The position numbers and the translations under genes are program-made. A model generated the notes under the pieces. The model was not told where the DNA came from. It did no database searches and worked only from the letters and a program-made list of their open reading frames with translations. From Alkalilimnicola ehrlichii MLHE-1 (GTDB lineage: Bacteria > Pseudomonadota > Gammaproteobacteria > Nitrococcales > Halorhodospiraceae), in contig NC_008340.1 in the NCBI RefSeq assembly GCF_000014785.1, forward strand, positions 2,430,001 to 2,462,000: a DNA stretch of 32,000 nt, read 5' to 3'. This document shows, one piece after another, positions 3,417-22,510 of this stretch. Numbering within the stretch: position 1 is the first letter of the stretch; each line of letters starts with the position of its first letter.

Positions 3417-3463
3417 GGGAGTCAGAGCGGTTCACCCAACACCCAACGGGTCGGGAGGTCATC

Positions 3464-4519
3464 ATGAGCACGATGCAGGCAGCGGTCTTCGTCGAGCCTG
3501 GCCGCATCGAGGTCCAGGAAAAACCCATACCGGAGATCGGGCCCACCGACGCCCTGCTCCGGGTCACTACCACCACCATCTGCGGCACCGATGTCCACAT
3601 CCTCAAGGGCGAGTATCCGGTGGAACCGGGTCGGATCGTCGGTCATGAGCCGGTGGGGGTGATCGAGAAGCTGGGCGAGGCGGTGACCGGTTATGAGCCC
3701 GGTCAGCGGGTGATCGCCGGGGCCATCACCCCCTGCGGCCAATGCCACGCCTGCCAGGACGGGGTCTCCAGCCAGTGCGGCGGCAAGGCCATGGGCGGCT
3801 GGCAGTTGGGCAACACCATCGACGGCTGCCAGGCGGAGTACGTCCGCATCCCCAACGCCCAGGCCAACCTGACCCCGGTGCCGGACGAGCTGACCGACGA
3901 GCAGGTGCTGATGTGCCCGGACATCATGAGCACCGGGTTCGGCGGTGCGGAAAACGGCCATATCCGGATCGGCGACACCGTGGCCATCTTCGCCCAGGGG
4001 CCGATCGGGCTGTGCGCCACCGCCGGCGCCAAGCTGATGGGGGCCACCCGGATCATCGTGGTGGACGGGGTCCCCGAGCGGCTGGAGACCGCCCGCAAGC
4101 TGGGCGCCGACGTTGGCGTCAACTTCCGCGAGCAGGATCCGGTCGAGGCCATCATGGAACTGACCGGGGGACGCGGCGTGGATGTCGCAATCGAGGCCCT
4201 GGGGCTTCAGGAGACCTTCGAGGCCTGCCTGCGGGTGCTCAAACCCGGCGGCACCCTGTCCAGCCTGGGGGTCTACTCCGGAAAACTCTCCATGCCGCTG
4301 GACGCCATTGCCGCTGGCTTGGGCGATCACACCATCGTGACCACCCTCTGCCCCGGCGGCAAGGAGCGCATGCGCCGGCTGATGGAGGTGGTGGCCGCCG
4401 GCCGGGTGGACCTGACCGCCATGGTGACCCACCGCTACACGCTGGACCAGATCGTCGAGGCCTACGACCTTTTCTCGCACCAGCGCGACGGCGTGCTGAA
4501 GGTGGCGATCACCCCATGA
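3464..4519 (+). CDS. Zinc-dependent alcohol dehydrogenase (MDR superfamily, about 351 aa)
   Basis: GGGAGG lies 5 nt upstream of ATG 3464. Motifs present: the catalytic Zn site region (TTTTICGTDVHILKGEYP...GHEPVG), the structural-Zn Cys cluster (CGQCHACQDGVSSQC) and the Rossmann GxGxxG (FAQGPIGLCA). The track ORF start at 3389 is a TTG inside the putative promoter. Confidence 0.88.
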   Translation: MSTMQAAVFVEPGRIEVQEKPIPEIGPTDALLRVTTTTICGTDVHILKGEYPVEPGRIVGHEPVGVIEKLGEAVTGYEPGQRVIAGAITPCGQCHACQDGVSSQCGGKAMGGWQLGNTIDGCQAEYVRIPNAQANLTPVPDELTDEQVLMCPDIMSTGFGGAENGHIRIGDTVAIFAQGPIGLCATAGAKLMGATRIIVVDGVPERLETARKLGADVGVNFREQDPVEAIMELTGGRGVDVAIEALGLQETFEACLRVLKPGGTLSSLGVYSGKLSMPLDAIAAGLGDHTIVTTLCPGGKERMRRLMEVVAAGRVDLTAMVTHRYTLDQIVEAYDLFSHQRDGVLKVAITP

Positions 4520-6394: not shown

Positions 6395-7138
6395 TCAGCG
6401 CGGGCTGGGGGCCTCGCCGAACCAGCGTTCGTACAGTTCAGCGTAGCGGCCATCCTCCATCATCCGCAGCAGGCCGATGTTGAAGTCGTTGCGCAGCTCG
6501 CTGTTGCGGGGGAAGGCCATGGCGTAGGACTGGGCCTCTAGGTTCTCGCCGACGGCCATCACCTCGCCGTCACCGGCGGTCTCGATATAGAACATCACGT
6601 TGGGGGTGTCGTGCAGGGCGGCGTCAACCCGGCCGGCGCGCACCTCCAGGTAGGCCTGTTCAGCGCGGGAGAAGCGGCGCAGCTGGGTGTCCGGCAGGTT
6701 GTCCGAGGCGTAGTCGTCGCTGGTGGTGCCGGTGGTCACCGCCAGGGTCTTACCGGCCAGGTCATCGATACCCCGCACCGTCTCGTTATCGCTACGCACC
6801 ATCAGCATCAGGCCGCTGTCGTAGTAGGCGTGGGAGAAATCCATGGTCTCCTCGCGCTGCGAGGTGATGGTGATGGCGGCGATGGCACCGTCCACGCGCC
6901 CGGTCTGCAGCGCGGTGATGATGCCGGAGAAATTCATCGTGTTGTATTCATAATCCCAGCCGTTCTCCTCGGCGATGGCCTCCCAGAGCTCGATCTCAAA
7001 GCCGGTCCATTCGCCGTCCTCTTCAAACATAAAAGGCACGAACCCGGAGGGGATAGCAATGGTCAGCCGATCGGCGTGGACCGGCAGCGCCAGTCCCAGC
7101 AGGACTAGGGTGAGCAAGGAAAATCGCAACCAACGCAT
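6395..7138 (-). CDS. Amino-acid ABC transporter periplasmic substrate-binding protein (family 3 SBP)
   Basis: Signal peptide MRWLRFSLLTLVLLGLALPVHA follows ATG 7138, with GGGAGG upstream. The SBP_bac_3 pattern is present (...FVPFMFEEDGEWTGFEIELWEAIAEENGW...GRVDGAIAAITITSQREE...). Confidence 0.88.
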   Translation of the reverse strand: MRWLRFSLLTLVLLGLALPVHADRLTIAIPSGFVPFMFEEDGEWTGFEIELWEAIAEENGWDYEYNTMNFSGIITALQTGRVDGAIAAITITSQREETMDFSHAYYDSGLMLMVRSDNETVRGIDDLAGKTLAVTTGTTSDDYASDNLPDTQLRRFSRAEQAYLEVRAGRVDAALHDTPNVMFYIETAGDGEVMAVGENLEAQSYAMAFPRNSELRNDFNIGLLRMMEDGRYAELYERWFGEAPSPR

Positions 7139-7255
7139 GATGCAGGCCTCCCTGTAATCGCCCGCTGACAAGGGCCGTCCTCTTGAAACTAGGCAGTCCT
7201 TCGCCCCGCGTCAAAGCCGGGGATGGCTCACCGTTCGAAAGGGGGCGGGCGCCGG

Positions 7256-7942
7256 TCAGGTTGGCCCGCCATCCGAACCATCGTCAACCTTGATCAGCCC
7301 CGGATCGTCTTCGGCGGGCCGGTTGACCCGGCGGGAGACCGGATAGGCGTACAGCCGTGCCGGGTCCAGACGCCTGACCGCTTGGCGGATCGCCCTGCGG
7401 TCACGCAGATCGGGATCCAGCCAGGCCCAACGGCACTCCGGATCCAACACCACCGGCTGACGGTGGTGAATATGGGCCAAGACAGGGGCGGCCGGCTCGG
7501 TGAGTATGGCGCAACTGCCCGGAGTACCGTCCGGGCCCGGGGTCCACAGCCCGGCAAGGAAGAGCACCGGAGCGGTCGCCCGTGGCCGTTGGGTGACGAA
7601 GTAGGGCTGCTTGCCTCCTTCCGCCTCCTGCCACTCAAACCAGCCGTCCGCTGGCACCAGGCAGCGGCGGCGCGCGAAGGCCTCACGAAAATAGGGGCTG
7701 GTGGCCGCCTTTTCCGCACGGGCGTTGATGGGCATGGGCCCTTCCCGGGCCCAGGCGGGCCGGAAGCCCCAGTGCAGCGCGGCCAGTTCCGCGCCCTTCC
7801 CGCCGTCACTCAGGAACGCCGGGATCGCGGTACCCGGGGTGATGTTGTAACGCGGGCCCCCTTCCGGGCCCACCCCCTGTAGCTCAAACCAATCCGCCGC
7901 GATCCGCTCCAGCGACGCCGAGAGGGCGAAGCGTCCACACAT
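7256..7942 (-). CDS. yedK: SOS-response-associated peptidase (SRAP/YedK/HMCES family, abasic-site DNA-protein crosslinking)
   Basis: The hallmark N-terminus MCGRFAL has the catalytic Cys2 at ATG 7942. Family motifs follow: ...RYNITPG..., ...INARAEKAATSPYFREAF...RRCLVPADGWFEW. The 62 codons upstream in the track ORF are not family-like. Confidence 0.88.
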   Translation of the reverse strand: MCGRFALSASLERIAADWFELQGVGPEGGPRYNITPGTAIPAFLSDGGKGAELAALHWGFRPAWAREGPMPINARAEKAATSPYFREAFARRRCLVPADGWFEWQEAEGGKQPYFVTQRPRATAPVLFLAGLWTPGPDGTPGSCAILTEPAAPVLAHIHHRQPVVLDPECRWAWLDPDLRDRRAIRQAVRRLDPARLYAYPVSRRVNRPAEDDPGLIKVDDGSDGGPT

Positions 7943-8099
7943 CGTCCTGTCCTGCCTCAGTGCCTCTGCAATTCGACACCAGGGTACCGCGAATTCGCCC
8001 ATCAACGCCCCGTCCCTGCCGGACTGCCCCAGCACCGCGGGCCGGCCGCTTGAGTCCCGGCGGGAAAGCCCCCAAAGTATGACCAGAGAGGGGGTGGTG

Positions 8100-8597
8100 A
8101 TGGACGAGTGGATTACGCGGGAACGCAAGAACCTGACTCAATTGGCGCAGCGGGTGCTGCTGAAGGCCAACCTGCTGGTGGGGCTGACCACCCTGGCGCT
8201 GATCGTCGGCTTCTACCTGGCGGCCGAGGCGATGGAGATCCCCTTCGGCATTGTCGTCTCTGTGCTGCTCTTCCTGATGCTGCTCGGGCCGCCGCTCTAC
8301 ACCCTGCTGGTGCATTCGGTACGCGGTCCTCTCTGGCGCCGGGCCGTGGCAGGGCGCATCCGCCGGCTGCGCGCCATCGGTTTTCTGACCAGCTATGTCG
8401 ACACCCTCGGCGAGCAGACCCTGGCCCGGCTACCGGACGAACCCCGACAGACCCTCGACAGGGCGCTGGAACAGGAACGGGAGGGCCGCCTCCCGCCCAC
8501 CCACCTCTACGCCGACGCCCTGTTCATCGCCCTGGCGGTGGACGCTGAGACCAGCGCCCGTCTGCCCCGCCGACAACGCCAAGGAGACCACTCATGA
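8100..8597 (+). CDS. Hypothetical membrane protein (2 predicted TM helices)
   Basis: There are two hydrophobic helices (LLVGLTTLALIVGFYLAA, FGIVVSVLLFLMLLGPPLYTLLV). The stop overlaps the SDR start (ATGA), which suggests co-translation. The start is uncertain: ATG 8079 or ATG 8100, the latter preceded by a GAGGGGG-like SD. No family was recognised. Confidence 0.5.
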   Translation: MDEWITRERKNLTQLAQRVLLKANLLVGLTTLALIVGFYLAAEAMEIPFGIVVSVLLFLMLLGPPLYTLLVHSVRGPLWRRAVAGRIRRLRAIGFLTSYVDTLGEQTLARLPDEPRQTLDRALEQEREGRLPPTHLYADALFIALAVDAETSARLPRRQRQGDHS

Positions 8598-9265
8598 GCA
8601 AGCTGATCATCGGCGCCCGCCGCGGCATCGGACTGGAGGTGGTGCGGCAATTGCGCGCACGGGGCGATACGGTGATTGCCGCGGCCCGTACATCGTCCGC
8701 TGAATTGGAGGCCACGGGTGCGGAGATCCACACCGAGGTGGATATCACCCGCCACGAGACCCTGCGCGCCCTAGCGACCGCCCTGGCCGACCGGGAGCTG
8801 GACTGGCTGCTGGTGGTGGCCGGGGTCATGAGCAAGCAGCGCCTGGGCGCCCTGGACGAGGCGGCGGTCGCCGGCATCCACCAGCAGTTCGAGACCAACG
8901 CCCTGGGCCCGTTGATGGCCGCGGAGGCGCTGGCGCCGCGAGTACGGCCAGGCGGCAAGCTGGGGATCCTGACCAGCAGGATGGGCTCGCTGGCCGACAA
9001 CACCTCCGGCAACAGCTACGGCTACCGCATGTCCAAGGCGGCGGTGAACATGGCGGGCGTCTCCCTGGCCCACGATCTGCGCGAGCGGGCGATCGCCGTG
9101 GCCCTGCTCCACCCCGGCTGGGTGCGCACCGATATGACCGCCCACAACGGGCTGATCGACCCGCCGGAGTCGGCGGCCGGGATCATCCGGTGCATGGACG
9201 AGCTGACCCTGGAGGAGACAGGCCGGTTCTGGCATGCACCCAAGGGGGAGCCGCTCCCCTGGTAG
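8594..9265 (+). CDS. Short-chain dehydrogenase/reductase (SDR) family oxidoreductase
   Basis: AAGGAG lies 7 nt upstream of ATG 8594. The N-terminal dinucleotide motif is IIGARRGIGLE and the catalytic motif is YGYRMSKAAVN (YxxxK). The NNAG-equivalent is LLVVAGV. Confidence 0.85.
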   Translation: MSKLIIGARRGIGLEVVRQLRARGDTVIAAARTSSAELEATGAEIHTEVDITRHETLRALATALADRELDWLLVVAGVMSKQRLGALDEAAVAGIHQQFETNALGPLMAAEALAPRVRPGGKLGILTSRMGSLADNTSGNSYGYRMSKAAVNMAGVSLAHDLRERAIAVALLHPGWVRTDMTAHNGLIDPPESAAGIIRCMDELTLEETGRFWHAPKGEPLPW

Positions 9266-9278
9266 GCCTTCTGTAACG

Positions 9279-9313
9279 AAAAACCCCTGCCAGGGCCTTG
9301 GCCCGGACAGGGG
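9279..9313 (-). terminator. Rho-independent terminator of the GG-leader peptide gene (may also stop the convergent SDR transcript)
   Basis: On the minus strand the sequence reads CCCCTGTCCGGGCC-AA-GGCCCTGGCAGGGG. This is a 14-nt-arm stem with 2 mismatches at 9284-9313, followed by TTTTT (9283-9279). It begins 43 nt after the peptide stop codon. Confidence 0.7.
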
Positions 9314-9355
9314 TGCGATCACTGCGTGCCCGTTCAGGCACTGATCAGTGGGCGC

Positions 9356-9532
9356 TTACAGCAGGCCGCCGAGCAGCGGGCCCACGGCACCCAGAACGGT
9401 GCCCAGCAGGCCGTCCACGATACCCGAAACGGCACCCAGCAGCTCGAGCACGCCGCTAACCTGGAGGTCCAGGCTCACGCCGGCACCGCCCACTACCGCA
9501 TCCATCTCCACGTTGGTCAGTTCACGGAACAT
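9356..9532 (-). CDS. Double-glycine-leader peptide precursor (bacteriocin/microcin-like, 58 aa); absent from the supplied ORF track
   Basis: Hand translation of the minus strand gives ATG 9532-9530 ... TAA 9358-9356: MFRELTNVEMDAVVGG/AGVSLDLQVSGVLELLGAVSGIVDGLLGTVLGAVGPLLGGLL. A perfect AAGGAG SD (9544-9539) lies 6 nt upstream. A terminator lies downstream. The leader has L-12, E-8, M-7, V-4, G-2, G-1. A C39 peptidase gene lies 5.8 kb away. Confidence 0.8.
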   Translation of the reverse strand: MFRELTNVEMDAVVGGAGVSLDLQVSGVLELLGAVSGIVDGLLGTVLGAVGPLLGGLL

Positions 9533-9771
9533 AATCGACTCCTTGACTTTGCCTATGGCAGAAATAATTGCCAGCCTTCAGCCAGCGAATTCGATCCTAC
9601 GCCCAGAAACAAGAAGCAGCCAATCATTAAATTCAACTATTACTATTGGGCGAATCCTTCCACCCTGATTAGCTGATATCATTCTGCGGGAATGGACTCA
9701 TTGGCATAAGCCTTACCAAGCATATATCACGAATGGATAATCCGGCAAATACTTAGCGAAATAGATGGTTA
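9533..9771. promoter_or_regulatory. AT-rich divergent control region between the peptide gene and the TolC-MFP-MacB operon
   Basis: Hand counts of lines 9601-9660, 9661-9720 and 9721-9780 give 40%, 47% and 35% G+C, against clearly GC-rich flanks. The candidate plus-strand promoter is TTGGCA (9701-9706), 16 nt, TATATC (9723-9728). The candidate minus-strand promoter is TTGGCT (9623-9618), 18 nt, TAGGAT (9599-9594). An inverted repeat TGGCA-N8-TGCCA lies at 9556-9573. Confidence 0.5.
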
Positions 9772-11190
9772 ATGAACCAACTACCCAAGAGTCGCCCAAT
9801 GACAAAGACCTGGCTTACCGTTCTGATGATCGTCGTCATGGGCATTGCCCCCACAGCAACCATGGCCGACGAGGACCGCCACTCCGCCCCCAACCGCGAA
9901 CTGGATCTGCGCTCCGCCATCGGCAAGGCGTTGCAGCTCCATCCAAGCATCCGCACCGGCGAGGCCCACATTGACCGGGCCCAGGCGCGCCTGGATCAGG
10001 CCGAATCCCTGTATTATCCCCATTTTTCCGCATCCAGCCGGATCGAAAGGCTGACCCTCAACACCGCCCGGCCCGATTCAGCCCGCGCAGTACTCGACTT
10101 CAACGGTGTGGAAATCGAGACCAAGGACCCGGATACCAGCATGTCGGGCTTCACCCGCTACGGGGCGGCCCTGCAGGCAGAATACATGCTCTACGATTTC
10201 GGCCGCCGGCAGCACGGAAAACGCGCCGCCGAGTCCCATTTGGGCACGGAACAGGCCCGGCTGAATGACATCACCTCCAGCACCGTCTTCAATGTGACTC
10301 AAGCTTATTTCGATGTCCTTAGGTTCCAGAACGCGCTGCGGATCCAGGAGGAATTCCTGGAACGCCGGCAGGAGAACCTGGACCTCGCCCGGCGCATGCA
10401 CCGGGCCGGGCGGGTAACGCGGGGTGACGTCATCAAGGCCGAGGCGGAACGCGCCCGAGCCCGTCTCGAGGTCACCCGCGCCGGCCACGACCTGGAGGCC
10501 AGCAGGGTGCGACTGCGCACCGCCATGGGACTGGATGAGGCGGGCTGGGCGTTCTCGGTCGTCGAAGGGGCTCAACTGACGCCACCGCAGGAACTCGGCA
10601 GGCGGGACGCCACCCACCGGGTGATCGAAGACCACCCCCGGCTACAGGCCGAACGCCAGTTCCTCCGGGCCCACCACGAGGAGCTGGAACAGGTGAAGGC
10701 GGACCGGCGCCCGGAGATCCGGCTCACCGGCAATTACCGCGTCGATGAGTTCCATTCCGGACCGGGCTCGGAACCAAACTATACCGTGGGGGTGCAGTTG
10801 GAGTGGCGCTTCTTTGACGGCGGCCAGCGCCGGGCGCGCGCCGCCGAGGCGCGCGCGGAGATGATGGCGGCCGCTGAACGGCAACGCGAGGCACGCCGCG
10901 ATGTCCTGACGGAACTGCACAACGCACAGCGTGAACTCACCGAGGCCGAGGAACGGATAGAGCTCAGCAAGACGTTGATCCGGGCGGCGGAGCAGGACCT
11001 GCGCAGCGCCACCATCGGCTACCGCGAAGGCATCCGCGCATTCTCCGACCTCTCCGACGCCGCCCTAGATCTGCGGGAGGCCGAATTGGAACTGGCCCTG
11101 GCCGAGTTCGATCGCCAGCAGGCTGTGATCGGTATCTACTGGGCCATGGGCCGGGCATCACTGGAACGGCTGACGGAGGCCGGCTTGTAA
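9772..11190 (+). CDS. TolC-family outer-membrane efflux protein
   Basis: Signal peptide ...MTKTWLTVLMIVVMGIAPTATMA. There are two OEP-type repeats rich in coiled-coil A/R/E/L sequence (...AQARLDQAESLYYPHFSASS..., ...ERQFLRAHHEELEQVKADRRPEIRLTGNY...). It is the first gene of the operon. The start is ATG 9772 or ATG 9799. Confidence 0.85.
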   Translation: MNQLPKSRPMTKTWLTVLMIVVMGIAPTATMADEDRHSAPNRELDLRSAIGKALQLHPSIRTGEAHIDRAQARLDQAESLYYPHFSASSRIERLTLNTARPDSARAVLDFNGVEIETKDPDTSMSGFTRYGAALQAEYMLYDFGRRQHGKRAAESHLGTEQARLNDITSSTVFNVTQAYFDVLRFQNALRIQEEFLERRQENLDLARRMHRAGRVTRGDVIKAEAERARARLEVTRAGHDLEASRVRLRTAMGLDEAGWAFSVVEGAQLTPPQELGRRDATHRVIEDHPRLQAERQFLRAHHEELEQVKADRRPEIRLTGNYRVDEFHSGPGSEPNYTVGVQLEWRFFDGGQRRARAAEARAEMMAAAERQREARRDVLTELHNAQRELTEAEERIELSKTLIRAAEQDLRSATIGYREGIRAFSDLSDAALDLREAELELALAEFDRQQAVIGIYWAMGRASLERLTEAGL

Positions 11191-11192
11191 TT

Positions 11193-12446
11193 ATGAGCCA
11201 ATCGCAACAACCCGATGGCGAAGACCGCTTGCAATCCCTCCAGCGTTCGCTGGATAACGCACTGGCACGTTGGCACGGGCTCAGCTTCCGGCGGCGGACC
11301 GCGATTGTCGCGGCCGTGCTGTTCGGCGGATTGCTCCTTGCCCTGCTGACCAGCGGCGGGCGATCACTGCCGGACGGCGTGGCGGCGGCCCCTATCGAAC
11401 CGCGGCCCCTCAATATGGAGGTGCGCGCCCAGGGCACCCTGCGCGCCCACCGGCAGATGAACGTCTACCCCCGGGTGGCGGGCACCGTGGTCGACATCGC
11501 CGCGGAGGCCGCGGAGGCCAACGGCCGGGTGAGCCGGGGCGAGGCCATCGTCACCCTGGACGACGAGGACATCCGCATTGAGGTGGAGGACGCGGAGGCC
11601 GCGCTCTGGGGGGCCAAGGCCGAGCTGGCCTCGGCGCTAGGGCGGTACCAGCGCGCCATCCAACAGCGGGACCGGGCCGAGCGGCTGTATCGGGAGGATC
11701 TGATCCCCAGGGACGAACGCGACCAGGAGCGGGCCCACTACGAGGACATGCGGGCTGCCCTGGAAACCGCCCGTGCCCATGTCCGCCAGGCAGAGATCCG
11801 CCTGGAGCAGGCACGGGACAACCTGCAGCACACCGAGGTCCGCAGCCCCATCGACGGCCGCGTGCTCAATATCGCCGCCGAACTGGGCGACCGGGTCGCC
11901 CCCGGCGGCCAGACACCGGTGTTCACCGTGGCGGCCGGCCTCGAGCCGATGGAGCTCCGGCTCGAGGTCAACGAAGCCGACATCGGCAAGATCCGAGCCG
12001 GGCAGCGCATCCGTTTCAACGTGGAGGCCTACCGCCAGGAGGACTTCCATGCCGAGGTCCGGCGCGTCCTGCCGGGCGGTTACGAGCGCCGCGGGGTCCA
12101 GGTCTACGAGGTGCGGGCCGACGCCGAAAATCCGCACCACCGCCTGATGCCGGGCATGAGTGTGCAGGCACGCATCCATATCGAACAAACCGAGCCCCGC
12201 CCGGCCATCCCTCTGCGGGCCCTGGTCTTTGAGCCGGAATCCGAACGCCTCCTGGACCCGCACCGGGACACCCTCCGCGCCTTGCGGGATGAGGGCCGGA
12301 GCATCATCTGGATCCAGGACCGGTCCGGGGAGATTCGCCCGGCGGGCGTCGAACTGGGCGAGCAGGACGACGAGTATGCGGTCCTGCGGGATACCCCCTG
12401 GTCCGACGACGACGCTGACGGTATTCGAGTCCTCTTCTACGAGTGA
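11193..12446 (+). CDS. Membrane-fusion (periplasmic adaptor) protein, MacA/HlyD_D23-like
   Basis: Single N-terminal TM (TAIVAAVLFGGLLLALL). Lipoyl half-motifs are present (VSRGEAIVTLDDED ... VRSPIDGRVLNI), flanking a long coiled-coil hairpin. A beta-barrel and membrane-proximal region follow. Confidence 0.85.
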   Translation: MSQSQQPDGEDRLQSLQRSLDNALARWHGLSFRRRTAIVAAVLFGGLLLALLTSGGRSLPDGVAAAPIEPRPLNMEVRAQGTLRAHRQMNVYPRVAGTVVDIAAEAAEANGRVSRGEAIVTLDDEDIRIEVEDAEAALWGAKAELASALGRYQRAIQQRDRAERLYREDLIPRDERDQERAHYEDMRAALETARAHVRQAEIRLEQARDNLQHTEVRSPIDGRVLNIAAELGDRVAPGGQTPVFTVAAGLEPMELRLEVNEADIGKIRAGQRIRFNVEAYRQEDFHAEVRRVLPGGYERRGVQVYEVRADAENPHHRLMPGMSVQARIHIEQTEPRPAIPLRALVFEPESERLLDPHRDTLRALRDEGRSIIWIQDRSGEIRPAGVELGEQDDEYAVLRDTPWSDDDADGIRVLFYE

Positions 12447-12455
12447 AGTGCCACC

Positions 12456-13193
12456 ATGTCTATCGTTCTCGAACTCGCTCACGTGGCCAAGAGCTTCTCA
12501 GTGGGGGGCCATCGGGTCTCGCCCTTGATTGATGCGAATCTGGTGGTCCGGCGCGGCGATCTGGTCTCCATCGTGGGGCCGTCCGGCTCCGGGAAATCCA
12601 CCCTACTTCACGTGCTCGGTTGCCTGGAGCGGCCGGACCAGGGCGAGGTCTATATCCGGGGCCGGCCCACCCGCGATCTCTCCGATGAGGAGCTGTCCGC
12701 CTTTCGCGGCAAGACCCTGGGTTTCGTATTCCAGCGCTTCTACCTCATCGACCGGATGACGGCCCTGCAGAACGTGGCCATGCCGTTGGAATACCGTGAT
12801 GATCTGACCCGTGAGGAGGCCTGGGCCCGGGCCTGGGAGAGCCTGGAACGCGTCGGCCTGGCCGAGCACGCCCACCACCGCCCCCGGCAGCTCTCGGGCG
12901 GTCAGCAACAGCGGGTGGCCATCGCCCGGGCGTTGGCCTCCCATCCGACGGTGCTGCTGCTGGACGAGCCCACCGGCAACCTGGACCCGGACACCGGCCG
13001 CAGCATCATGCGGATCATCCACGAACTGCGCCAGGTCATCCCGGAGATGGCGGTCATCCTGGTCACCCACGACATGGCGCTCGCCGCAGACGCTGAGATC
13101 GCCTACGAGCTCCACCGCGGTCGGCTCCACCGGGTGCACTGGGACCAGGCGGGGCCTGGCGTGCAGACAATCAGCGCATCCTGTCCGGCATGA
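12456..13193 (+). CDS. MacB/LolD-type ABC transporter ATP-binding protein
   Basis: Walker A GPSGSGKST. The family-typical segment is LGFVFQRFYLIDRMTALQNVAMPL. Signature LSGGQQQRVAIARAL, Walker B LLLDEPTGNLD, H-loop VTHD. The stop overlaps the permease start (ATGA). Confidence 0.9.
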   Translation: MSIVLELAHVAKSFSVGGHRVSPLIDANLVVRRGDLVSIVGPSGSGKSTLLHVLGCLERPDQGEVYIRGRPTRDLSDEELSAFRGKTLGFVFQRFYLIDRMTALQNVAMPLEYRDDLTREEAWARAWESLERVGLAEHAHHRPRQLSGGQQQRVAIARALASHPTVLLLDEPTGNLDPDTGRSIMRIIHELRQVIPEMAVILVTHDMALAADAEIAYELHRGRLHRVHWDQAGPGVQTISASCPA

Positions 13194-14416
13194 GACTGCC
13201 CGTTTCCACCGCTTCGATCAGCAACGCCTTCGCCCTGCTGCGGGAGCACAAGGTGCGCTCCGGGCTGACGGTGCTCGGCATCGCCGTGGGGATCTGGGCA
13301 GTGGTGACCCTGCTGGCCATTGGCATGGGCGCACGGAGCTACATCGAGGGCCAGGTCCAGATCCTCGGCTCGGACCTGCTGGTGGTGACGCCCGGTTCCT
13401 CGGAGGACCCCACCAGCTTCTTCAACCCGGTGATCATGGAGAGCCTGACCCTGGCCGATGCCGAGCATTTCCGCAACCGGATCCCGGACGTCCACCGGGT
13501 GGCGGCCGTCTTTCAACTCAGCGGCGAACTCAGCGTGGCCGACAAGCGGGCGGCCGGCAGCGTGGTGGGCACAGAGCCCGACTATTTCGCCCTCCGGGAG
13601 CTGAGCGTGGACACCGGCCGGCTCCTCAACAGGGCGGATCAGCGCTCCGCGGCACCGGTTGCCGTCCTCGGTGCGGAGCTCGCCCAGCAATTGTTCGGCA
13701 ACCAACCGCCGCTGGGCGAGTCCATCCGTTTCCGCGGGCAACCGTTGGAGGTGGTCGGGGTGCTCAGCCAACGGGACGACGCGGCGCTGGGGCAGGGCGA
13801 GGACCGCAACCTCTTCGTCCCCATCCGGTATGCCCAGCGGGCCCTGGCTGGGGCCCACCACGTGGAATACATCATGGTGGAGCCCACCGGCCGTGAAACC
13901 AAGGACGCAGTGGCCCGCGCCATCGATCTGCACCTGATGACCCGCAAATCCCGGCTCAGCAATGCCGGCAAGACCCACACCGTGACCGACTTTGGCGAGA
14001 TCGCGACCCTGGCCGGAAGGATTGTCGACGCCATGACCTGGACCCTGGTCAGCATCGCCGGCGTCAGCCTGGTGGTCGGGGGGATCGGTGTGATGAACGT
14101 CATGCTGGCCTCGGTCAGCGAACGGGTCAGCGAGATCGGCATCCGGCGCGCGGTGGGGGCCAATGCCAACCAGATCCGGCTGCAGTTTCTCTCCGAGGCG
14201 GCCATGCTCACCGTGGTCGGGGGGGTGGTCGGGCTGTGCCTGGCCTTTATTTCCATCCTCCTCGCCAACCAGTTGCTGCCCTGGGAAGGGAGCCTGACGG
14301 TCACCTCGGTGCTGCTGGTCCTGCTCTTCTCAGCGAGTATTGGCGGCTTCTTCGGCTACTACCCGGCACGTAAAGCGGCGAACATGCCACCCATGGAGGC
14401 CTTGCGCTATGACTGA
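13190..14416 (+). CDS. MacB-type ABC permease (MacB periplasmic core domain plus FtsX 4-TM fold)
   Basis: TM1 is RSGLTVLGIAVGIWAVVTLLAIGMG. A periplasmic domain of about 220 aa follows, then three C-terminal TMs carrying the FtsX-family motif (GVMNVMLASVSERVSEIGIRRAVGA) and the tail YYPARKAANMPPMEALRYD. Confidence 0.88.
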   Translation: MRLPVSTASISNAFALLREHKVRSGLTVLGIAVGIWAVVTLLAIGMGARSYIEGQVQILGSDLLVVTPGSSEDPTSFFNPVIMESLTLADAEHFRNRIPDVHRVAAVFQLSGELSVADKRAAGSVVGTEPDYFALRELSVDTGRLLNRADQRSAAPVAVLGAELAQQLFGNQPPLGESIRFRGQPLEVVGVLSQRDDAALGQGEDRNLFVPIRYAQRALAGAHHVEYIMVEPTGRETKDAVARAIDLHLMTRKSRLSNAGKTHTVTDFGEIATLAGRIVDAMTWTLVSIAGVSLVVGGIGVMNVMLASVSERVSEIGIRRAVGANANQIRLQFLSEAAMLTVVGGVVGLCLAFISILLANQLLPWEGSLTVTSVLLVLLFSASIGGFFGYYPARKAANMPPMEALRYD

Positions 14417-14936
14417 AACGACCGCTCTTCATCTCCCTTCGGTCCCCCGGGCCGCGACAGGCCTGCTGCAGGGCGTCGTCACCGCACCGCGGACCACCCT
14501 GCGGCAACTCTCCGGCTCGTGGACCGAGTGGTCCGCGGCGCTCCTCATCCTGGCCGGGATCATCCTTCTGAACACCCTGATGGCCCTGGCCATGGGTCGC
14601 GAGGGGTTGGGGACGCAATTACTCTCCGGCGCGCAATCCGCAATCCTAGCCTCACTGGCCACGGCGACCGTGATATGGCTGCTGGTCCAGCTTCTTTGCG
14701 CCGTACGCATCGCTTGGCAGCGGGTGCATAGCGGGACCATTCTCATCATGATCCCGCTCATCCTCGGACCGGTACCCGTCCTTGGCCACCTCATGCTGCT
14801 GGCGTTTGCCGGGCTGATCGCCCTGGTGTTTCTGGATGTGGCGGAGCAACCTCGGAACCGCAGCCTGCTCCTCACCGGCCTGACCTGGGTGGCCCTGATT
14901 GCCCTGGCGTTGGTAGGCGCCCGGTTGTTCGGCTGA
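14409..14936 (+). CDS. 5-TM membrane protein, Yip1-like (candidate accessory/immunity component, YknW analogue)
   Basis: ATG 14409 overlaps the permease 3' end by 8 nt (ATGACTGA). There are about five hydrophobic helices. The N-terminal segment LLQGVVTAPRTTLRQL...WSAALLILAG resembles Yip1-domain proteins. The Yip1 call rests on topology and pattern only. Confidence 0.6.
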   Translation: MTETTALHLPSVPRAATGLLQGVVTAPRTTLRQLSGSWTEWSAALLILAGIILLNTLMALAMGREGLGTQLLSGAQSAILASLATATVIWLLVQLLCAVRIAWQRVHSGTILIMIPLILGPVPVLGHLMLLAFAGLIALVFLDVAEQPRNRSLLLTGLTWVALIALALVGARLFG

Positions 14937-14949
14937 AAAGGGCAGGCCA

Positions 14950-15260
14950 CCCCCACCGTCACTGCGAGGAGGCGAAGCCGACGGGGCAGTCGGCCGCCCT
15001 GGATCGCCACGGGCCTTCGGCCCTCGCGATGACGGGGGAAAGCCTCGGCCCTCTTGAAGCATTGGGCTGTGCCGGAAGCGGAAGGTCGCCCCCACCGTCA
15101 CTGCGAGGAGGCGAAGCCGACGCGGCAGTCTACCCCTCTGGATCGCCACGGGCCTTCGGCCCTCGCGATGACGGGGGGAAGAAAGCCTCGGCCCTCGCGA
15201 TGACGGGGGCAAGCCATTCGTCGGTGATTCGGGCCCGCGCAGGGGGGCTCGGGATGACGG
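14950..15260. repeat. REP/BIME-like mosaic of palindromic intergenic repeats (cluster B, inverted relative to cluster A)
   Basis: Two tandem copies of an 87-nt unit lie at 14950-15036 and 15090-15177. Each reads CCCCACCGTCACTGCGAGGAGGCGAAGCCGACG...GGATCGCCACGGGCCTTCGGCCCTCGCGATGACGGGG and is the reverse complement of 2903-2987. Bases 15021-15260 are collinear with the reverse complement of 2814-3056. Confidence 0.85.
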
Positions 15261-15305
15261 CTTATCCAGCCGTTGCCCAAAGGATTTTGTAAAGGAGGTG
15301 ACATC

Positions 15306-15866
15306 GTGACGCTGCTCAAACATCGGTCCTTCAACCGCGCGCAGGCCGGCCGGGATTTCAGCCGGGTCATTCCCCAGTCCCGCCCTGACTCCTGCGGTCT
15401 GGCCGCCCTGGCCACCCTGATGAATGAGGTCCTACACTTACCGACGAGCGAAGCCGCGCTGCAGGCGAGACTGAAACACCGCCGCCCCGCCAGCCTGACT
15501 GACCTGAGCAAGCTTAGTCGCCAGGCAGGCCTCAAGGCCCATGCCTACGCGGTCGACCTGGACCTGCTCCTTCGGGTGCAACGACCGGCCATACTGCATA
15601 TGGGGGCCTCGCGCCGGATCGGGCACTACGTGGTGGTCCGGGGGGTTGCGGACGACAAAGCGTGGCTCGCCGATCCCATGCGCGGCAACGTCCACCTGGA
15701 CCTGACCGCCCTCAAGAAACACTGGTACGTGCCTCGCAAACCCTTTGGTCACGTCCTTTACGTCGCCGGAGCGGACGAGGAATGGTTACCCCTGAACGAG
15801 GAGCACCTTCCGGGCAGCCCGCCGGAAACGGTCAGCGACTGGTTCCCCCCGCCGGCCGGACGTTAG
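15306..15866 (+). CDS. Free-standing C39-family cysteine peptidase (bacteriocin double-glycine leader peptidase domain only)
   Basis: AAGGAGG (15292-15298) lies 7 nt upstream of GTG 15306; the track start TTG 15273 has no SD. Motifs present: Q-x5-C (IPQSRPDSCGLAALATLMN), His (IGHYVVVRGV) and Asp (WLADP). Spacing is Cys30 to His107 77 aa and His107 to Asp123 16 aa, as in PCAT C39 domains. There is no TM segment, no signal peptide and no ABC domain. Confidence 0.8.
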   Translation: MTLLKHRSFNRAQAGRDFSRVIPQSRPDSCGLAALATLMNEVLHLPTSEAALQARLKHRRPASLTDLSKLSRQAGLKAHAYAVDLDLLLRVQRPAILHMGASRRIGHYVVVRGVADDKAWLADPMRGNVHLDLTALKKHWYVPRKPFGHVLYVAGADEEWLPLNEEHLPGSPPETVSDWFPPPAGR

Positions 15867-15965: not shown

Positions 15966-16760
15966 TCAGCCGGAGGATTCCTCCAGCAAGCCGTGGCGGT
16001 TCGCCAGCAGGGCCAGTTGGGTCCGGTTGGAGACCCCGGTCAGGGCGAGGACCTGCGACACGTAAAGCTTGACCGTGTTCTCCGAGATCTGCAGGTGGTT
16101 GGCAATCTGGTAATTGCTGTGCCCCTTGGCGATCAGCTCGGTCACCTCGCGTTGCCGCTTGGTCAGCCGGGCGAAGCCTTCCACCAGCCCGCCCTGGACG
16201 CCCTCCTTCCCGCGGGTTGCCTGACCACCGCGCTGCCCCATAACGCTGCCCTTGATCTCCTCAAGGTCACTGGCCATGGTGCTCACCGAGGTCGCCACGG
16301 AATCGAGTTTCACCCCGATTTCGCCCCCGCCGCGGATTTCGCTCCGGCGATTGACCCGCTCAACCAGTTTTTCGACACATCGGGCCAGCTGGTCCAGATT
16401 GACCGGCTTTTGCAGGTATTCCCGGACACCACTGCGCAGCGCCGCAATGGCGTTGCTATGGGAGCCGTGGCCCGTCAATACCGCCACCTCGAACACCCGG
16501 TCGGCCTCAAACGAATCGATGAGCCAGCCAGCGAACGTAATCCCGTCCTCGCCCGGCATCTTGATATCGGTGATCACCACCTTGATGTCTTTACGCTCGA
16601 AGAACTTTTTCCGCGCCTCATCCGCTGAGGTCGCGCTCTCGCAATCGTAACCGAGCTCGGAGAGATATTCGACGATCTCCTCGACGATATACTTTTCATC
16701 ATCGACCACCAGAACCGCCACCGGTTCGGAGTGACTGTCTTCTCTTTGCATCACATCCAC
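15966..16760 (-). CDS. Two-component response regulator, REC plus LuxR/FixJ-type HTH (PprB-like position)
   Basis: REC residues are intact (VVDDE, ITDIKMPGEDG, LTGHG, LQKP). The C-terminal HTH is LTKRQREVTELIAKGHSNYQIANHLQISENTVKLYVSQVL. An unusually long G/S-rich linker of about 60 aa joins them. GTG 16760 has AGGTG 5 nt upstream; an alternative ATG lies at 16751. Confidence 0.88.
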   Translation of the reverse strand: MDVMQREDSHSEPVAVLVVDDEKYIVEEIVEYLSELGYDCESATSADEARKKFFERKDIKVVITDIKMPGEDGITFAGWLIDSFEADRVFEVAVLTGHGSHSNAIAALRSGVREYLQKPVNLDQLARCVEKLVERVNRRSEIRGGGEIGVKLDSVATSVSTMASDLEEIKGSVMGQRGGQATRGKEGVQGGLVEGFARLTKRQREVTELIAKGHSNYQIANHLQISENTVKLYVSQVLALTGVSNRTQLALLANRHGLLEESSG

Positions 16761-16831: not shown

Positions 16832-19336
16832 TCATAACGTCCGTTCTTCAACGGCGGGCAAATCGACCGTGAACTCCGCACCCGCATCGGTATTGCGTGC
16901 CGAAATCACGCCGCCCATGCTCTTTACGATCCCGAAACTGACCGAGAGTCCAAGCCCTGTCCCCTCACCGACCTCCTTGGTGGTAAAGAACGGGTCGAAC
17001 AGGTGACCCAAGGCGGCGTCACTGATCCCCGGCCCTGAGTCCTGGACACGTATGCGCAGCATTTCGCGCCCTCCATCGTCGTCAATGGACTCTAACTTTA
17101 GTGTAATCCATTCACCCTGTAAGTACTCCGCGTTACCCTGCTCCCGGGCCCGCTCCCTGATGGCATCCCGGCTGTTGATCATCAGGTTCAGCAACACCTG
17201 AACCAGTTGGTCCTGGTTACCCAGCACCTGGCAGGCTCCGCGGGCCCGATCCTCAAACGTCACCTGCAGGCCATTGCCGGTGAACTGCTCCTGGATCAGA
17301 ACCAGGGCATCCTCAATGGCGGCCACCACCGAGAACAATCGCGCTTCAGGATCGCTTTTCCGGCCAAAGACCCGCATCTGCTGGATGATGGCGGCGGCCC
17401 GCTCCACCTGGCCGATGATGCGGTCCAGCTTCTTGCCCACCTGTTCCAGGCCGGCCTCGCCCTTGGCTAGGTTGCGCCGGGCGTTGAACGACGCCATCTT
17501 GATGACATTCAGCGGCTGGTTGATCTCGTGCGCCACCCCCGTGGCCATTTCGCCCACGGTCGCCATCTTGGCCGCATGGATCAGCTTCTCCTGCGCGCTC
17601 TTGATCTCGGTGTTGTCGTGTCCCACCGCCTGCACCTCCAGCAGGTCGCCATCGTCGGAGAAGAACCCCCGCTCCGACCAGGTCACCCAGCGCACCCCCC
17701 GGCCCGGCACCTGCATTCTCAGCTCGTAGCTGATGATGGGCGACAACGGCGTCAACTGGCCCAGGCGGTCGCCGATACCAACGCGCTCCTCTTCCGGAAG
17801 CAGATCCAGCCAGGTAACCCCGTCCTGCTCCCCCTGCAACGGCTCAATGAACGACTCGAAAAAGGCCGTGTTATGAAAGACAATCCGGAAGTCCGTGGTG
17901 TAGCGGCAGATAAACGCCGGGGCATCGTCCACGATGGCCTTGTACCGGCGCTCGCTGTCCGCAATGGCCTGCTCAAGCTGCTGGCGCCGGGTCACATCCC
18001 AAAACATGCCCACGACGTTGCCCCCGCCCGCACTCTGGACACCCTCATAGACCCAACGGTACCCGCCGTCAGCGGTGCGCAGCCGGTAAATGGCCGAGAA
18101 CTGCCCTTCGCGCTGAAGCTGCTTCACCCGCTCCTTGATGATGGCCAAGTCCGCCGGGTGAGTCAGCGAGCTGAGGCGCTCCTGCGCCGGCAAATTCCGG
18201 ACGGCCTGCCCCAATAACCCCTCGGAGGAGGAGCTTACGTAATCAGGCAACAGGCGATGCCCCTCCAGCCGTGCCGAGTAGAAGGTAATCCCCGCCTTTT
18301 CGGCCACACTCTCCAGGGCATAGGCGCTCACCCGGTGGGCCTCCCGGGCCTCCACCTCCCCGGTGATCTCATACAGAACCGCCAGCACCCGGTCCTCCTG
18401 CGACCCGGACTCCCGCCGGAAGCGGAGCTGGTACCACCGTCGCCCCTGGCCCGTCCCGCGGGGATCAGAGACCGCCACCCGAACCTCCGATTCGAGCCCG
18501 ACGGCGCCCGCGGCCGCATCGCGAAAACCGCTGACCACCGGCGCCGCATCGGGCAACGCCCCTGCCCGTTCCAGTTGCGCCAGGTGCCCCTGGCCGGAGG
18601 GCGGCAGGCCCAGCACTCGGGTGGCGGGCCCGAACCACTGCAGGCGATCCGGTCCGGGCCACCAGACCAATTGCCCCAAGCCCCCCAGCGTGATCAGGCC
18701 CTGATAGCGCTCCGCCTCTCCTCGCCGCTCCTGCACCAGCCCCACCTGGGCGATGTAACCGGCGACCAGGCAGCCGACGGGCATCAGGCCGCGGGCCAGC
18801 GAGTCATCCCAGTCCTCCCGAATACCGGCTTGTTCCACCGCCAGCATGCCCAAAGGCCGGCCACCGCTCACCAGCGGGAAAAGCAGCAGCGAGCGCACCC
18901 GGCGCTCCGCCATCACCCCCTCGACGGTCTTGGGCAGGGGCACGGCCTGATCAATGCCACTGCGGTCCGGTTGGCGCAGCCAGACACCCGGACTGAGGGT
19001 ATCCAGCATCCGCTGCCAATCCCGGGTCTGTTCGTAGGCCCGCGGCGTTAACCGCTCGCTGGACTGGAGGGGCGGGTGCAGATGCCAGTGGACAGCCGAC
19101 TCCGGAAACCCCGAGATCTCGCCCTGATCCAAGTGAATAACGACGTGGTCCGCCTGAAGCGCCTGCCCCAGCACCCCAGCCAGGCGCCGCAAAGGGCCTG
19201 CACCGGTGGCGGGGGGCGCGAGCGAGAGCAAATGGGCACACTCCGAGACAATAGCCGACGCCCGGACGGATCCGTGCGCATAGTCCTCCCGCCAGGCCGA
19301 CGCCTGGTGAGGATGGCTGTCGTATGACTCGGGCAA
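16832..19336 (-). CDS. Soluble multi-domain sensor histidine kinase (GAF, several PAS, HisKA, HATPase_c; PprA-like position)
   Basis: The TTG start at 19336 has GGAGG 7 nt upstream. The GAF-like N-terminus reads ...LLLFPLVSGGRPLGMLAVEQ. PAS-like segments are present. H-box GVAHEINQPLN, N-box LLNLMINSRDA, G1 VQDSGPGI, G2 GTGLGLS. No TM helix was seen. Confidence 0.88.
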   Translation of the reverse strand: MPESYDSHPHQASAWREDYAHGSVRASAIVSECAHLLSLAPPATGAGPLRRLAGVLGQALQADHVVIHLDQGEISGFPESAVHWHLHPPLQSSERLTPRAYEQTRDWQRMLDTLSPGVWLRQPDRSGIDQAVPLPKTVEGVMAERRVRSLLLFPLVSGGRPLGMLAVEQAGIREDWDDSLARGLMPVGCLVAGYIAQVGLVQERRGEAERYQGLITLGGLGQLVWWPGPDRLQWFGPATRVLGLPPSGQGHLAQLERAGALPDAAPVVSGFRDAAAGAVGLESEVRVAVSDPRGTGQGRRWYQLRFRRESGSQEDRVLAVLYEITGEVEAREAHRVSAYALESVAEKAGITFYSARLEGHRLLPDYVSSSSEGLLGQAVRNLPAQERLSSLTHPADLAIIKERVKQLQREGQFSAIYRLRTADGGYRWVYEGVQSAGGGNVVGMFWDVTRRQQLEQAIADSERRYKAIVDDAPAFICRYTTDFRIVFHNTAFFESFIEPLQGEQDGVTWLDLLPEEERVGIGDRLGQLTPLSPIISYELRMQVPGRGVRWVTWSERGFFSDDGDLLEVQAVGHDNTEIKSAQEKLIHAAKMATVGEMATGVAHEINQPLNVIKMASFNARRNLAKGEAGLEQVGKKLDRIIGQVERAAAIIQQMRVFGRKSDPEARLFSVVAAIEDALVLIQEQFTGNGLQVTFEDRARGACQVLGNQDQLVQVLLNLMINSRDAIRERAREQGNAEYLQGEWITLKLESIDDDGGREMLRIRVQDSGPGISDAALGHLFDPFFTTKEVGEGTGLGLSVSFGIVKSMGGVISARNTDAGAEFTVDLPAVEERTL

Positions 19337-19816: not shown

Positions 19817-20341
19817 TTAGAACTCTATACGGGTGCTGGCCTCCAGTGTCTCCGGCAACTGCGGGACAGCCCCGATTCCCGGAAACACCAGCGGCACGAC
19901 AAACGGCGCAGCCTGGTAATCATACGCCACCCGAACCGAAAGGACGTCTCCGGTCAGGGTGACCTCCACGTCGAAATCTCCGGGTGCCAGGGCCGTAAGG
20001 ACCGACTCCGACAGCAGGTCATTGGTGGCCTGTTTCGAATGCCCAATAACCGCATCCGGATAGGTGTCATATTGGCCGAAATCCGTCCGGGAGGGATCGA
20101 CCCGCAAGCCCACCCGCGCCCCTTCGGCCACTGCCATATTCATCTGTTGCACCAACAGCATCGGAAAGGTGTAGGAGACAATCGCGTAGAACACCGTGAA
20201 AAAGAGCAGGAAGACCAGGGCGAACTCTATGGCCGCCGCGCCGCGCTGCCTCCTGTTGCCACCCATCTGCACGCCCATGATTCGCCTTTTTCGCCACCAC
20301 GATGCGGACCGGGATCGCCTTGACACTGGATTCACCGTCAT
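19817..20341 (-). CDS. tadE: TadE/TadF-like pseudopilin (TadE domain)
   Basis: The TadE N-terminal motif is RRQRGAAAIEFALVFLLFFTVFYAIVSY. ATG 20341 makes an ATGA overlap with the tadG stop. Internal ATGs at 20278 and 20266 are alternative starts. Confidence 0.8.
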   Translation of the reverse strand: MTVNPVSRRSRSASWWRKRRIMGVQMGGNRRQRGAAAIEFALVFLLFFTVFYAIVSYTFPMLLVQQMNMAVAEGARVGLRVDPSRTDFGQYDTYPDAVIGHSKQATNDLLSESVLTALAPGDFDVEVTLTGDVLSVRVAYDYQAAPFVVPLVFPGIGAVPQLPETLEASTRIEF

Positions 20342-22149: not shown

Positions 22150-22177
22150 CAGGCTCCTGCGCGGGCGCCCGCGCCTT

Positions 22178-22495: not shown

Positions 22496-22510
22496 GCAAG
22501 ACCTCGCTGA

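Follow-up and report, generated by a model that had tools for sequence, protein, structure and literature searches.

How does a bacterium mature and export a peptide with a double-glycine leader when the usual transporter is not encoded beside it? Double-glycine peptides, which include bacteriocins, microcins, pheromones, and many ribosomally made peptides with posttranslational modifications (RiPPs), are in the textbook view both cleaved and transported by a single fusion protein, the peptidase-containing ATP-binding cassette (ABC) transporter (PCAT). The question is raised by a 32,000-nucleotide stretch of DNA (the window) from the soda-lake haloalkaliphile Alkalilimnicola ehrlichii MLHE-1, in which a small peptide gene stands beside genes for a MacB-type tripartite pump, a five-helix membrane protein, and a free-standing C39 cysteine peptidase that is 100% identical to that strain's protein. 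An earlier reading of the same DNA, made from its letters and open reading frames (ORFs) and referred to here as the sequence-only reading, had offered two interpretations: a new route of maturation and export, or a pump for self-immunity whose peptide leaves by another exporter. On the evidence set out below, we lean toward the view that the locus is a self-contained module that would make, mature, and expel a small, hydrophobic, acidic peptide without a PCAT.

A peptide with a double-glycine leader

The candidate precursor gene (9356-9532, minus strand) encodes 58 amino acids (aa) behind a strong Shine-Dalgarno sequence (AAGGAG, 7 nucleotides [nt] 5' of the ATG) and is divergent from the pump operon. 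Membership in the double-glycine leader class was defined by GG, GA, or GS at -2/-1, ending a leader of 15 to 30 aa in which -4, -7, and -12 (and -15) are hydrophobic and -8 is acidic. The recognition rule reported for C39 peptidases asks for GG or GA at -2/-1, Glu at -8, and a hydrophobic residue at each of -4, -7, -12, and -15 (PMC10885120; pattern also in PMC8277102). The 16-aa leader of the window peptide (MFRELTNVEMDAVVGG) has F-15, L-12, E-8, M-7, V-4, and GG at -2/-1 (residues 15 and 16), so that both the cleavage-site residues and the hydrophobic/acidic pattern of the class are present. Homologous peptides were found at related loci, which we number with the prefix L (L001, L002, L004, L007, L008, L088, and L092). 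The hydrophobic leader positions and the GG/GA site were kept in 10 of 10 homologous peptides, and Glu-8 was kept in 9 of the 10. When the whole window was scanned for the leader pattern, the peptide ORF was returned together with one further match, which was judged spurious on inspection. No further or leaderless peptide gene was found elsewhere in the window.

The 42-aa core (AGVSLDLQVSGVLELLGAVSGIVDGLLGTVLGAVGPLLGGLL) contains no K, R, H, or C. Gly, Ala, Leu, Val, and Ile make up 79% of its residues, and it has four GxxxG motifs, a net charge of -3, a grand average of hydropathy (GRAVY) of 1.48, and a calculated monoisotopic mass of 3911.26 Da. For the leader, the calculated mass is 1766.83 Da. 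Curated peptide family models (Bacteriocin_IIc, ComC, lantibiotic-leader, bacteriocin_sig, and others) gave sub-threshold matches only, including TIGR01847 (E 0.13) and PF10439 (E 0.012; 16 bits, where the cut-off is 27.1 bits). By these comparisons, the predicted peptide is a new family inside the double-glycine leader class, and the peptides together form an unclassified acidic glycine-zipper family of soda-lake bacteria.

For the product, a membrane-active and bacteriocin-like role in haloalkaliphilic Gammaproteobacteria is the most likely. We favor this role because of the predicted glycine-zipper helices, the duplicated and diverging peptide genes of L002 and L092, and the leaderless companion peptides of L007 and L088; such duplication and leaderless companions are typical of toxin loci.

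The companions are Leu/Gly-rich acidic peptides whose genes adjoin the double-glycine peptide gene. In L007 the gene (4218-4325, plus strand) has a strong ribosome-binding site and encodes 35 aa (MDVIDGLLGTVLGLAQPVLDLVSELLGGGLLGGLL), and in L088 the gene (7557-7676, plus strand) encodes 39 aa (MLGLGNLLSGLLDTILGLLNPVLSLVTGLLNSLLGGLLG). Both products resemble the Alkalilimnicola core in its C-terminal half and may represent either an ancestral form or a second component.

A free-standing C39 peptidase

The peptidase gene (15306-15866, plus strand) encodes a 186-aa protein that matches the C39 family well above threshold (PF03412, 75.8 bits against a 22-bit gathering score, E 3.7e-21). The putative catalytic residues Gln24, Cys30, His107, and Asp123 do not vary among nine members of its clade, and its nearest solved relative is LahT150, the double-glycine protease domain of LahT (6MPZ, 1.2e-4). 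The sequence-only reading had described the enzyme as free of transmembrane and nucleotide-binding domains, and this was upheld, since the protein has no transmembrane (TM) segment and no hydrophobic segment (maximum 0.98). Members of the clade carry a conserved C-terminal WLPL...DWFP tail and have no signal peptide. Because the enzyme lacks an export signal, cleavage would be cytoplasmic. The start codon first assumed (TTG at 15273) was replaced by the GTG at 15306, which follows AAAGGAGGTGA and is almost certainly the true one.

In the window, 369 nt separate the peptidase gene from the gene for the five-helix protein. This gap holds a cluster of REP-like (repetitive extragenic palindromic) dispersed repeats (14932-15215) consisting of two 111-nt copies and three 28-nt copies with the core TCGGCCCTCGCGATGACGGGGG. 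A 22-mer of the repeat recurs at 2872-3060 on the minus strand, where three copies lie near 2.9 to 3.1 kb and none is expected by chance. Strong folding is predicted for the region (z = -3.3), and a search for terminator-like sites between the five-helix and C39 genes gave none. In the close relative L001, the repeats are absent and the C39 gene begins 25 nt after the five-helix gene. We therefore regard the C39 gene as part of the operon, because the repeat is a strain-specific insertion that L001 lacks. The sequence-only reading had counted five genes in a tightly coupled operon; the coupling stood, and the count became six in effect. A regulatory part for the repeat cluster within the system was considered and rejected, because the element is dispersed (also at 2872-3060) and missing in L001.

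Elsewhere, the five-helix gene is directly 5' of the C39 gene in L001, L004, L007, L089, and L092, and in L004 its stop codon overlaps the C39 start. This gene coupling, together with the conserved WLPL...DWFP tail, is the basis for a speculation that the five-helix protein and the peptidase could form a docking pair.

A MacB-type pump with a five-helix partner

The pump operon begins with a TolC-family outer-membrane factor (OMF; 9772-11190, plus strand, 472 aa). Its OEP match (1.9e-55) falls in two stretches, its TIGR01844 match (2.9e-42) is under the cut-off, and its N terminus is hydrophobic and signal-like (residues 13 to 33). Next is a periplasmic membrane-fusion (adaptor) protein (MFP; 11193-12446, plus strand, 417 aa) with a single N-terminal anchor (residues 34 to 57). 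It matches HlyD_D23 (5.3e-18), HlyD_3 (3e-14), and MacA (3.5e-30) and passes the cut-off of the NCBIfam RND_mfp model TIGR01730 (144 versus 94.9 bits). The ABC ATPase (12456-13193, plus strand, 245 aa; ABC_tran, 5.6e-34) is of the LolD/MacB type, with LolD (2.1e-62), the N-terminal half of MacB (1.7e-59), and DarD (1.4e-52) as its best NCBIfam matches, all under their equivalog cut-offs. The permease (13190-14416, plus strand, 408 aa) carries MacB_PCD (5.4e-44) and FtsX (5.5e-18) domains. It matches MacB PRK10535 across residues 11 to 405 (2.9e-55) and aligns end to end with the MacB structure 5LIL in the PDB (8.9e-49, residues 16 to 406). Hydropathy indicates four TM segments, with a loop of about 230 aa between TM1 and TM2.

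The ORF map agreed with the positions and spacing given by the sequence-only reading, and hidden Markov models (HMMs) confirmed each of its four pump assignments (TolC-like outer-membrane protein, MFP, LolD/MacB-type ATPase, and four-TM MacB_PCD/FtsX permease). The OMF and MFP genes are 2 nt apart and the MFP and ATPase genes 9 nt apart. The ATPase/permease junction is an ATGA overlap, and the permease and five-helix genes overlap by 8 nt. With a four-TM MacB_PCD and FtsX permease and adjacent ATPase, adaptor, and OMF genes at gaps of no more than 9 nt, the locus has the features of a type VII ABC pump. Orthology to MacAB itself was rejected, as scores were far below those models' cut-offs (188 versus 966 bits for PRK10535 and 105 versus 342 bits for PRK11578). 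By sequence and structure comparison, the predicted pump is thus of MacB fold and type without being a MacAB ortholog.

The fifth gene of the operon (14409-14936, plus strand) encodes a 175-aa inner-membrane protein; its start was moved from the TTG at 14340 to the ATG at 14409. It is always directly 3' of the permease gene. The sequence-only reading had called the product a Yip1-like protein with five TM segments. Hydropathy bore out the five predicted helices; support for the family assignment was weak, as no Pfam model matched at E ≤ 0.01 and Yip1 (PF04893) itself scored E 0.47 against the window protein, below its 28.6-bit cut-off. A UniRef match to the protein is labeled Yip1 domain-containing, and the protein is a counterpart of YknW by position. 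We consider "Yip1-like" a reasonable label for a protein whose membership in the family is weakly supported. Word-index homolog searches with the C39 protein, the five-helix protein, and a five-helix profile gave three to six matches each in an index of limited reach, and the five-helix/C39 family is rare.

Conservation of the module

To examine conservation, we used three comparative approaches: an exhaustive HMMER search for C39 relatives, a scan for free C39 genes in 185,579 species genomes (with a 5-sequence C39 alignment as the query), and a peptide-first scan of metagenomes from the Joint Genome Institute (JGI). The sequence-only reading had said beforehand that its proposal would fall if the components were not syntenic in other genomes. 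We found that the full set recurs in seven further divergent lineages. Nine loci are full, with peptide, OMF, MFP, ATPase, permease, five-helix, and C39 genes (the window, L001, L002, L004, L091, L007, L008, L088, and L092). One more (L089) is partial, on a short contig that holds the five-helix protein, C39, and kinase genes only. The lineages include Thioalkalivibrio, a Thiohalomonadaceae metagenome-assembled genome (MAG), and soda-lake and other metagenomes.

The nearest C39 relatives in the HMMER search are all short and free-standing, the closest lack a hydrophobic N terminus, and every contig among them that is big enough to show flanks has the full set. Among more distant free-standing relatives, 106 of 148 have a hydrophobic N terminus. 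The genome scan returned 80 free-C39 loci, of which only the two best, L007 (Thioalkalivibrio sp. ALE10) and L008 (the Thiohalomonadaceae MAG), had the pump and five-helix genes. The peptide-first scan returned two loci, L091 from soda-lake sediment and a locus identical to L008, and each has the full set.

Gene order varies among these loci while linkage is kept. L004 (C39 identity to the window, 45%) has a divergent 60-aa double-glycine peptide, followed by OMF, adaptor, ATPase, permease, a 159-aa five-helix protein, and C39. In L092 (36%, by tblastn), two double-glycine peptide genes, the pump, and the five-helix and C39 genes are followed on the same strand by orthologs of the window's histidine kinase and LuxR-type regulator. 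The position of the C39 gene changes in two loci. In L088 (30%) it comes first, before a double-glycine peptide gene on the opposite strand, the leaderless 39-aa peptide, the pump, and then the five-helix protein; in L008 it lies 3 kb off, beyond the peptide gene and an OmpR-type regulator.

Identity to the window was 68 to 72% for the ATPase, 63 to 64% for the permease, and 41 to 46% for C39 in L004 and L007; 63%, 62%, and 36% in L092; 55%, 55%, and 40% in L008; and 58%, 49%, and 30% in L088. The resulting ranking (L004/L007 > L092 > L008 > L088) is roughly the same across components, with the exception of C39 (L008 > L092), which suggests that the module was inherited as a unit. The module appears to be rare and limited to haloalkaliphilic or sulfur-oxidizing Gammaproteobacteria and their metagenomes.

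Other free-C39 loci from the genome scan had no pump genes beside C39. One candidate, L010, was rejected as a member: its MacB-type pump is 4 kb away, its C39 protein has a signal peptide, and it has no five-helix protein or peptide. The locus L021 contains six genes (6868-12732), mostly without a Pfam match and ending in an outer-membrane barrel (weak HMM match). By gene sizes it looks like a fapA-F functional-amyloid operon with C39 at the FapD position. Most other free-C39 loci, including those of Stenotrophomonas (many of L027 to L086), appear to be FapD-like, with one locus inspected.

Proposed mechanism of maturation and export

On the basis of the genes observed, their domains, the catalytic residues, the features of the leader, and the linkage conserved among loci, we propose the following sequence of events. 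The 58-aa precursor would be translated in the cytoplasm and held soluble or inactive by its 16-aa leader. The free cytoplasmic C39 enzyme would recognize the leader and cut after Gly-Gly, and the 42-aa core, with its putative antimicrobial activity, would partition into the inner membrane. There the five-helix protein and the MacB-type permease/ATPase would capture the peptide from the membrane or its periplasmic face, as YknW does with YknXYZ, and the adaptor and TolC-family channel would eject it from the cell. A single machine would in this way provide both secretion and self-protection of the producer. A GAF-PAS histidine kinase and a LuxR-type regulator encoded next to the C39 gene probably control expression of the module and may be its conserved regulator in one sub-clade.

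Precedents make such a mechanism plausible. YknWXYZ handles the 42-aa SDP peptide and requires YknW (PMC8277102), the FtsX-type DarBCD transporter raises export of the cytoplasmically made darobactin 2- to 4-fold (PMC8442675), and pumps of the MacB family are known to export toxins as well as lipopeptides, with sizes reaching about 10 kDa (PMC8277102). In light of DarBCD (PMC8442675), the premise of the sequence-only reading that MacB-type pumps play no role with cytoplasmically made peptides was too strong. A narrower proposal is that secretion is PCAT independent, with the soluble C39 enzyme and a Yip1-like front end handing the matured peptide to the type VII pump as its sole dedicated exporter. 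This seems to us a tenable idea to be held tentatively, short of an expectation.

Several observations weigh against the proposed module. MacB-type pumps are held to take their substrates on the periplasmic side by mechanotransmission and not across the inner membrane (PMC5985334), and how the core would reach that side is the weak point of the scheme. Yip1 (PF04893) was sub-threshold in six of eight five-helix homologs (best E, 0.022), and AlphaFold2 models built from shallow alignments (mean predicted local distance difference test [pLDDT] of 46 for the five-helix protein and 34.5 for C39) were too poor for fold comparison. The peptides are acidic, in contrast to the mostly cationic known bacteriocins, a charge that may reflect a lifestyle at high pH and salt, and no separate small immunity gene is present. 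Given the narrow ecology and taxonomy of the loci, some of the synteny may simply reflect vertical co-inheritance. Finally, the search for a PCAT covered the window and the related loci, where none was found, and one may be encoded elsewhere in the genome.

Alternative explanations

The same machinery might serve a peptide that is not a toxin. We hypothesized a surface-active, matrix, or adhesion peptide, comparable to phenol-soluble modulins (PSMs) or amyloids, that serves in colonizing surfaces and is functionally tied to a Tad/Flp pilus. The genes for this pilus stand beside the module in four loci (the window, L001, L004, and L007), in varying orientation. They are not adjacent in L002, L008, L088, or L092, and Tad divergence is about that of the pump, so that adjacency may be inherited gene order. 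The cores, which are acidic, free of cationic residues, and rich in Gly, Ala, and Leu, would suit such a role, as would the leaderless helper-like peptides and the finding that proteins with a GG motif enable biofilm formation in Synechococcus (PMC4997328). Other free C39 enzymes also serve fiber systems (FapD, PMC5557850, and the FilB model), but FapD-type enzymes are periplasmic and belong to a different clade. We consider this explanation unlikely, if the best of the alternatives.

The Tad/Flp locus is complete in all four cases (window, 19817-29896; L001, 11811-17825; L004, 11208-20540; L007, 10532-19258). In the window it encodes TadE, TadG, a TPR protein (TadD by position), TadC, TadB, TadA, TadZ, RcpA, and RcpC. 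The end nearest the module is the distal TadE/G end in the window and the prepilin-peptidase/Flp end in L004 and L007.

A slightly less probable alternative is that the pump provides immunity only, as a self-protection system of the YknWXYZ type, with the peptide exported by a PCAT or other exporter elsewhere in the genome. The four-component layout matches that of YknWXYZ, whose role is protection against SDP (PMC8277102), and the view that MacB-type pumps do not cross the inner membrane with their substrate (PMC5985334) points the same way, as does the restriction of our PCAT search to the loci. On the other hand, the C39 domain built into a PCAT would make the conserved, translationally coupled free enzyme redundant, and with a TolC-family channel, clearing the envelope of the peptide amounts to exporting it. 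Neither the nine full loci nor the partial one has a PCAT linked to the module. The sequence-only reading had noted the absence of a PCAT, and this was borne out in the window, where C39 is unfused and no protein has an ABC_membrane domain; nor is such a protein conserved in the related loci. The only window ORFs above 600 aa encode the histidine kinase and a TadG-like protein, and no other exporter is conserved across the loci. We think that the export and immunity interpretations are inseparable by sequence and describe one mechanism unless a PCAT exists elsewhere, because TolC-coupled removal from the inner membrane both secretes the peptide and protects the producer.

Directly upstream of the module, L007 carries a type I secretion locus (10-4090), in which genes for an outer-membrane factor and a HlyD adaptor accompany that of an ABC protein of the LssB type. 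The ABC protein was considered as a hidden PCAT and rejected, since it passes the 693-bit LssB cut-off with 787 bits and has no catalytic Q...CG motif in its N-terminal domain.

It is also conceivable, at a distinctly lower probability, that the peptide is a quorum-sensing pheromone of the ComC/BlpC kind sensed by an adjacent two-component system. Next to the C39 gene, and convergent with it, the window encodes a LuxR/GerE-type response regulator (15966-16760, minus strand; Response_reg, 6.2e-21; GerE, 3e-15) and a GAF-PAS-PAS histidine kinase (16832-19336, minus strand; GAF, PAS_3, PAS_4, HisKA, and HATPase_c). Orthologs of both are linked in L001 and L092, and one of the kinase in L089; in L002 a truncated kinase is all that is left beside the regulator. 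Kinase orthologs follow C39 in L089 (30% identity over 447 aa, 2e-58; 1623-4010, kinase only) and L092 (34% over 551 aa; pair at 11071-15343), and a regulator ortholog with 42% identity lies co-directional after C39 and the kinase in L092/L093. In streptococci, a double-glycine pheromone paired with its own two-component system is a classic arrangement (PMC7595303), and one peptide gave a weak match to the ComC model. Several features argue against this role. The pair is not beside the module in L004, L007, or L088, and the regulator of L008 differs (OmpR type). Moreover, a 40- to 44-aa core with a GRAVY above 1.1 is unlike known pheromones. The window kinase has GAF and PAS domains, one borderline hydrophobic stretch, and no extracytoplasmic sensor; it is probably cytoplasmic, and with no clear TM pair we judged it unlikely to be an extracellular peptide receptor.

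In L002, which comes from a second A. ehrlichii strain, a DDE transposase gene (13255-14574) stands in the place of the kinase, of which a 221-aa remnant is left. The regulator pair is disrupted there; the peptide-pump module is intact and has two peptide genes.

Chance juxtaposition, with the small ORF unexpressed or the C39 enzyme acting on something else, would fit the lack of an above-threshold family match for the peptide and the repeat-bearing gap before the C39 gene, but it is very improbable given that the peptide ORF and its leader pattern are kept in lineages with C39 identity to the window down to 30%, that the ORF has its strong Shine-Dalgarno sequence and was the only credible hit of the leader scan, and that linkage outlasts the shuffling of gene order.

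Relation to known systems

Like the PCAT systems (CvaAB-TolC/colicin V, ComAB, LahT, and PCAT1), the proposed module combines the GG/GA leader pattern, a papain-like C39 enzyme with Gln, Cys, His, and Asp, an adaptor and TolC-family channel (as in Gram-negatives), and a small unmodified hydrophobic core. It differs in that the 186-aa peptidase is separate and soluble, that the transporter is type VII with a split ATPase and four TM segments instead of a six-TM fold that holds cargo in a cavity, and that there is an extra five-helix membrane protein.

SDP is matured from SdpC by the Sec route. The pump that handles it, YknWXYZ of Bacillus subtilis, shares with our locus an adaptor, an ATPase, an FtsX/MacB permease, and a hydrophobic substrate (putative in our case) of about 42 aa, and it has a Yip1-type protein whose counterpart by position is our five-helix protein (PMC8277102). 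Unlike our locus, it is Gram-positive, has no outer-membrane channel, C39 enzyme, or double-glycine leader, and provides immunity only; the likeness of our five-helix protein to Yip1 is sub-threshold. Relatives of MacAB-TolC (the STII enterotoxin exporter, PvdRT-OpmQ, lipopeptide exporters, and AatPABCD/dispersin) have the same tripartite type VII fold and TolC-type duct. Their known peptide cargoes are Sec-routed, with no double-glycine leader or dedicated C39 enzyme, whereas in our locus the ATPase and permease genes are split and a Yip1-like partner is added.

In DarBCD, too, the genes for an ATPase, an adaptor, and a permease of the FtsX type stand beside that of a leader-bearing ribosomal peptide (PMC8442675). 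Its cluster has no dedicated leader protease named, and its core is a modified 7-residue peptide (PMC8442675). It lacks a C39 enzyme, a Yip1-like protein, and a cluster-encoded outer-membrane factor, and the window permease has negligible similarity to DarB (E 0.0045). Single-domain C39 proteins of about 200 to 280 aa are known from FapD (Pseudomonas amyloid) and FilB, which gave the best NCBIfam matches to our enzyme (5.7e-11 and 1.4e-10). Membership in either family was rejected, at 42 versus 330 bits for NF058616 and 41 versus 475 bits for NF050078. FapD is reported to be periplasmic (PMC5557850), whereas the window enzyme has no hydrophobic N terminus and belongs to a pump operon, not a Fap-like cluster.

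We found no description of a double-glycine peptide with a free C39 enzyme and a MacB-type pump in the full-text literature searched, in which subscription journals are thinly covered; within that literature, the claim of the sequence-only reading that the architecture is undescribed for such a peptide held. A 2011 survey of cyanobacterial clusters gives PCAT-based layouts only (PMC3140520), and a 2023 review of RiPP leader proteases treats C39 only as PCAT domains or domains excised from PCATs (PMC10885120). All parts of the module belong to known kinds; what is new is the way they are combined.

If the proposal is true, a large peptide class would have a second route, in which the protease is detached and the carrier swapped for a MacB-type pump. 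The free C39 enzyme would be a naturally stand-alone protease for double-glycine leaders, and as a naturally soluble one it could serve as a tool for leader removal. The module would also offer a test case for whether and how type VII ABC transporters handle substrates derived from the cytoplasm or inner membrane, the same question that is posed by lipopeptides and darobactin, and a tractable Gram-negative model for the bacterial Yip1/YknW-type partner.

Other features of the loci

About 1 kb downstream of its detached C39 gene, L008 encodes a 637-aa thrombospondin type 3 repeat protein (10201-12114; PF02412, 3.5e-89). In the window, the intergenic control region (9533-9771) from which the peptide gene and the pump operon diverge shows a local fall in G+C to 0.61. 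Across the three Alkalilimnicola loci, this region has a mean identity of 76% with long invariant blocks, and it contains one promoter-like site (9713-9741, plus strand). The peptide gene also has a conserved hairpin (GCTGGCTGAAGGCTGGC; 9570-9586, minus strand) in its 5' untranslated region, which lies within a noncoding block that is almost invariant across these three loci.

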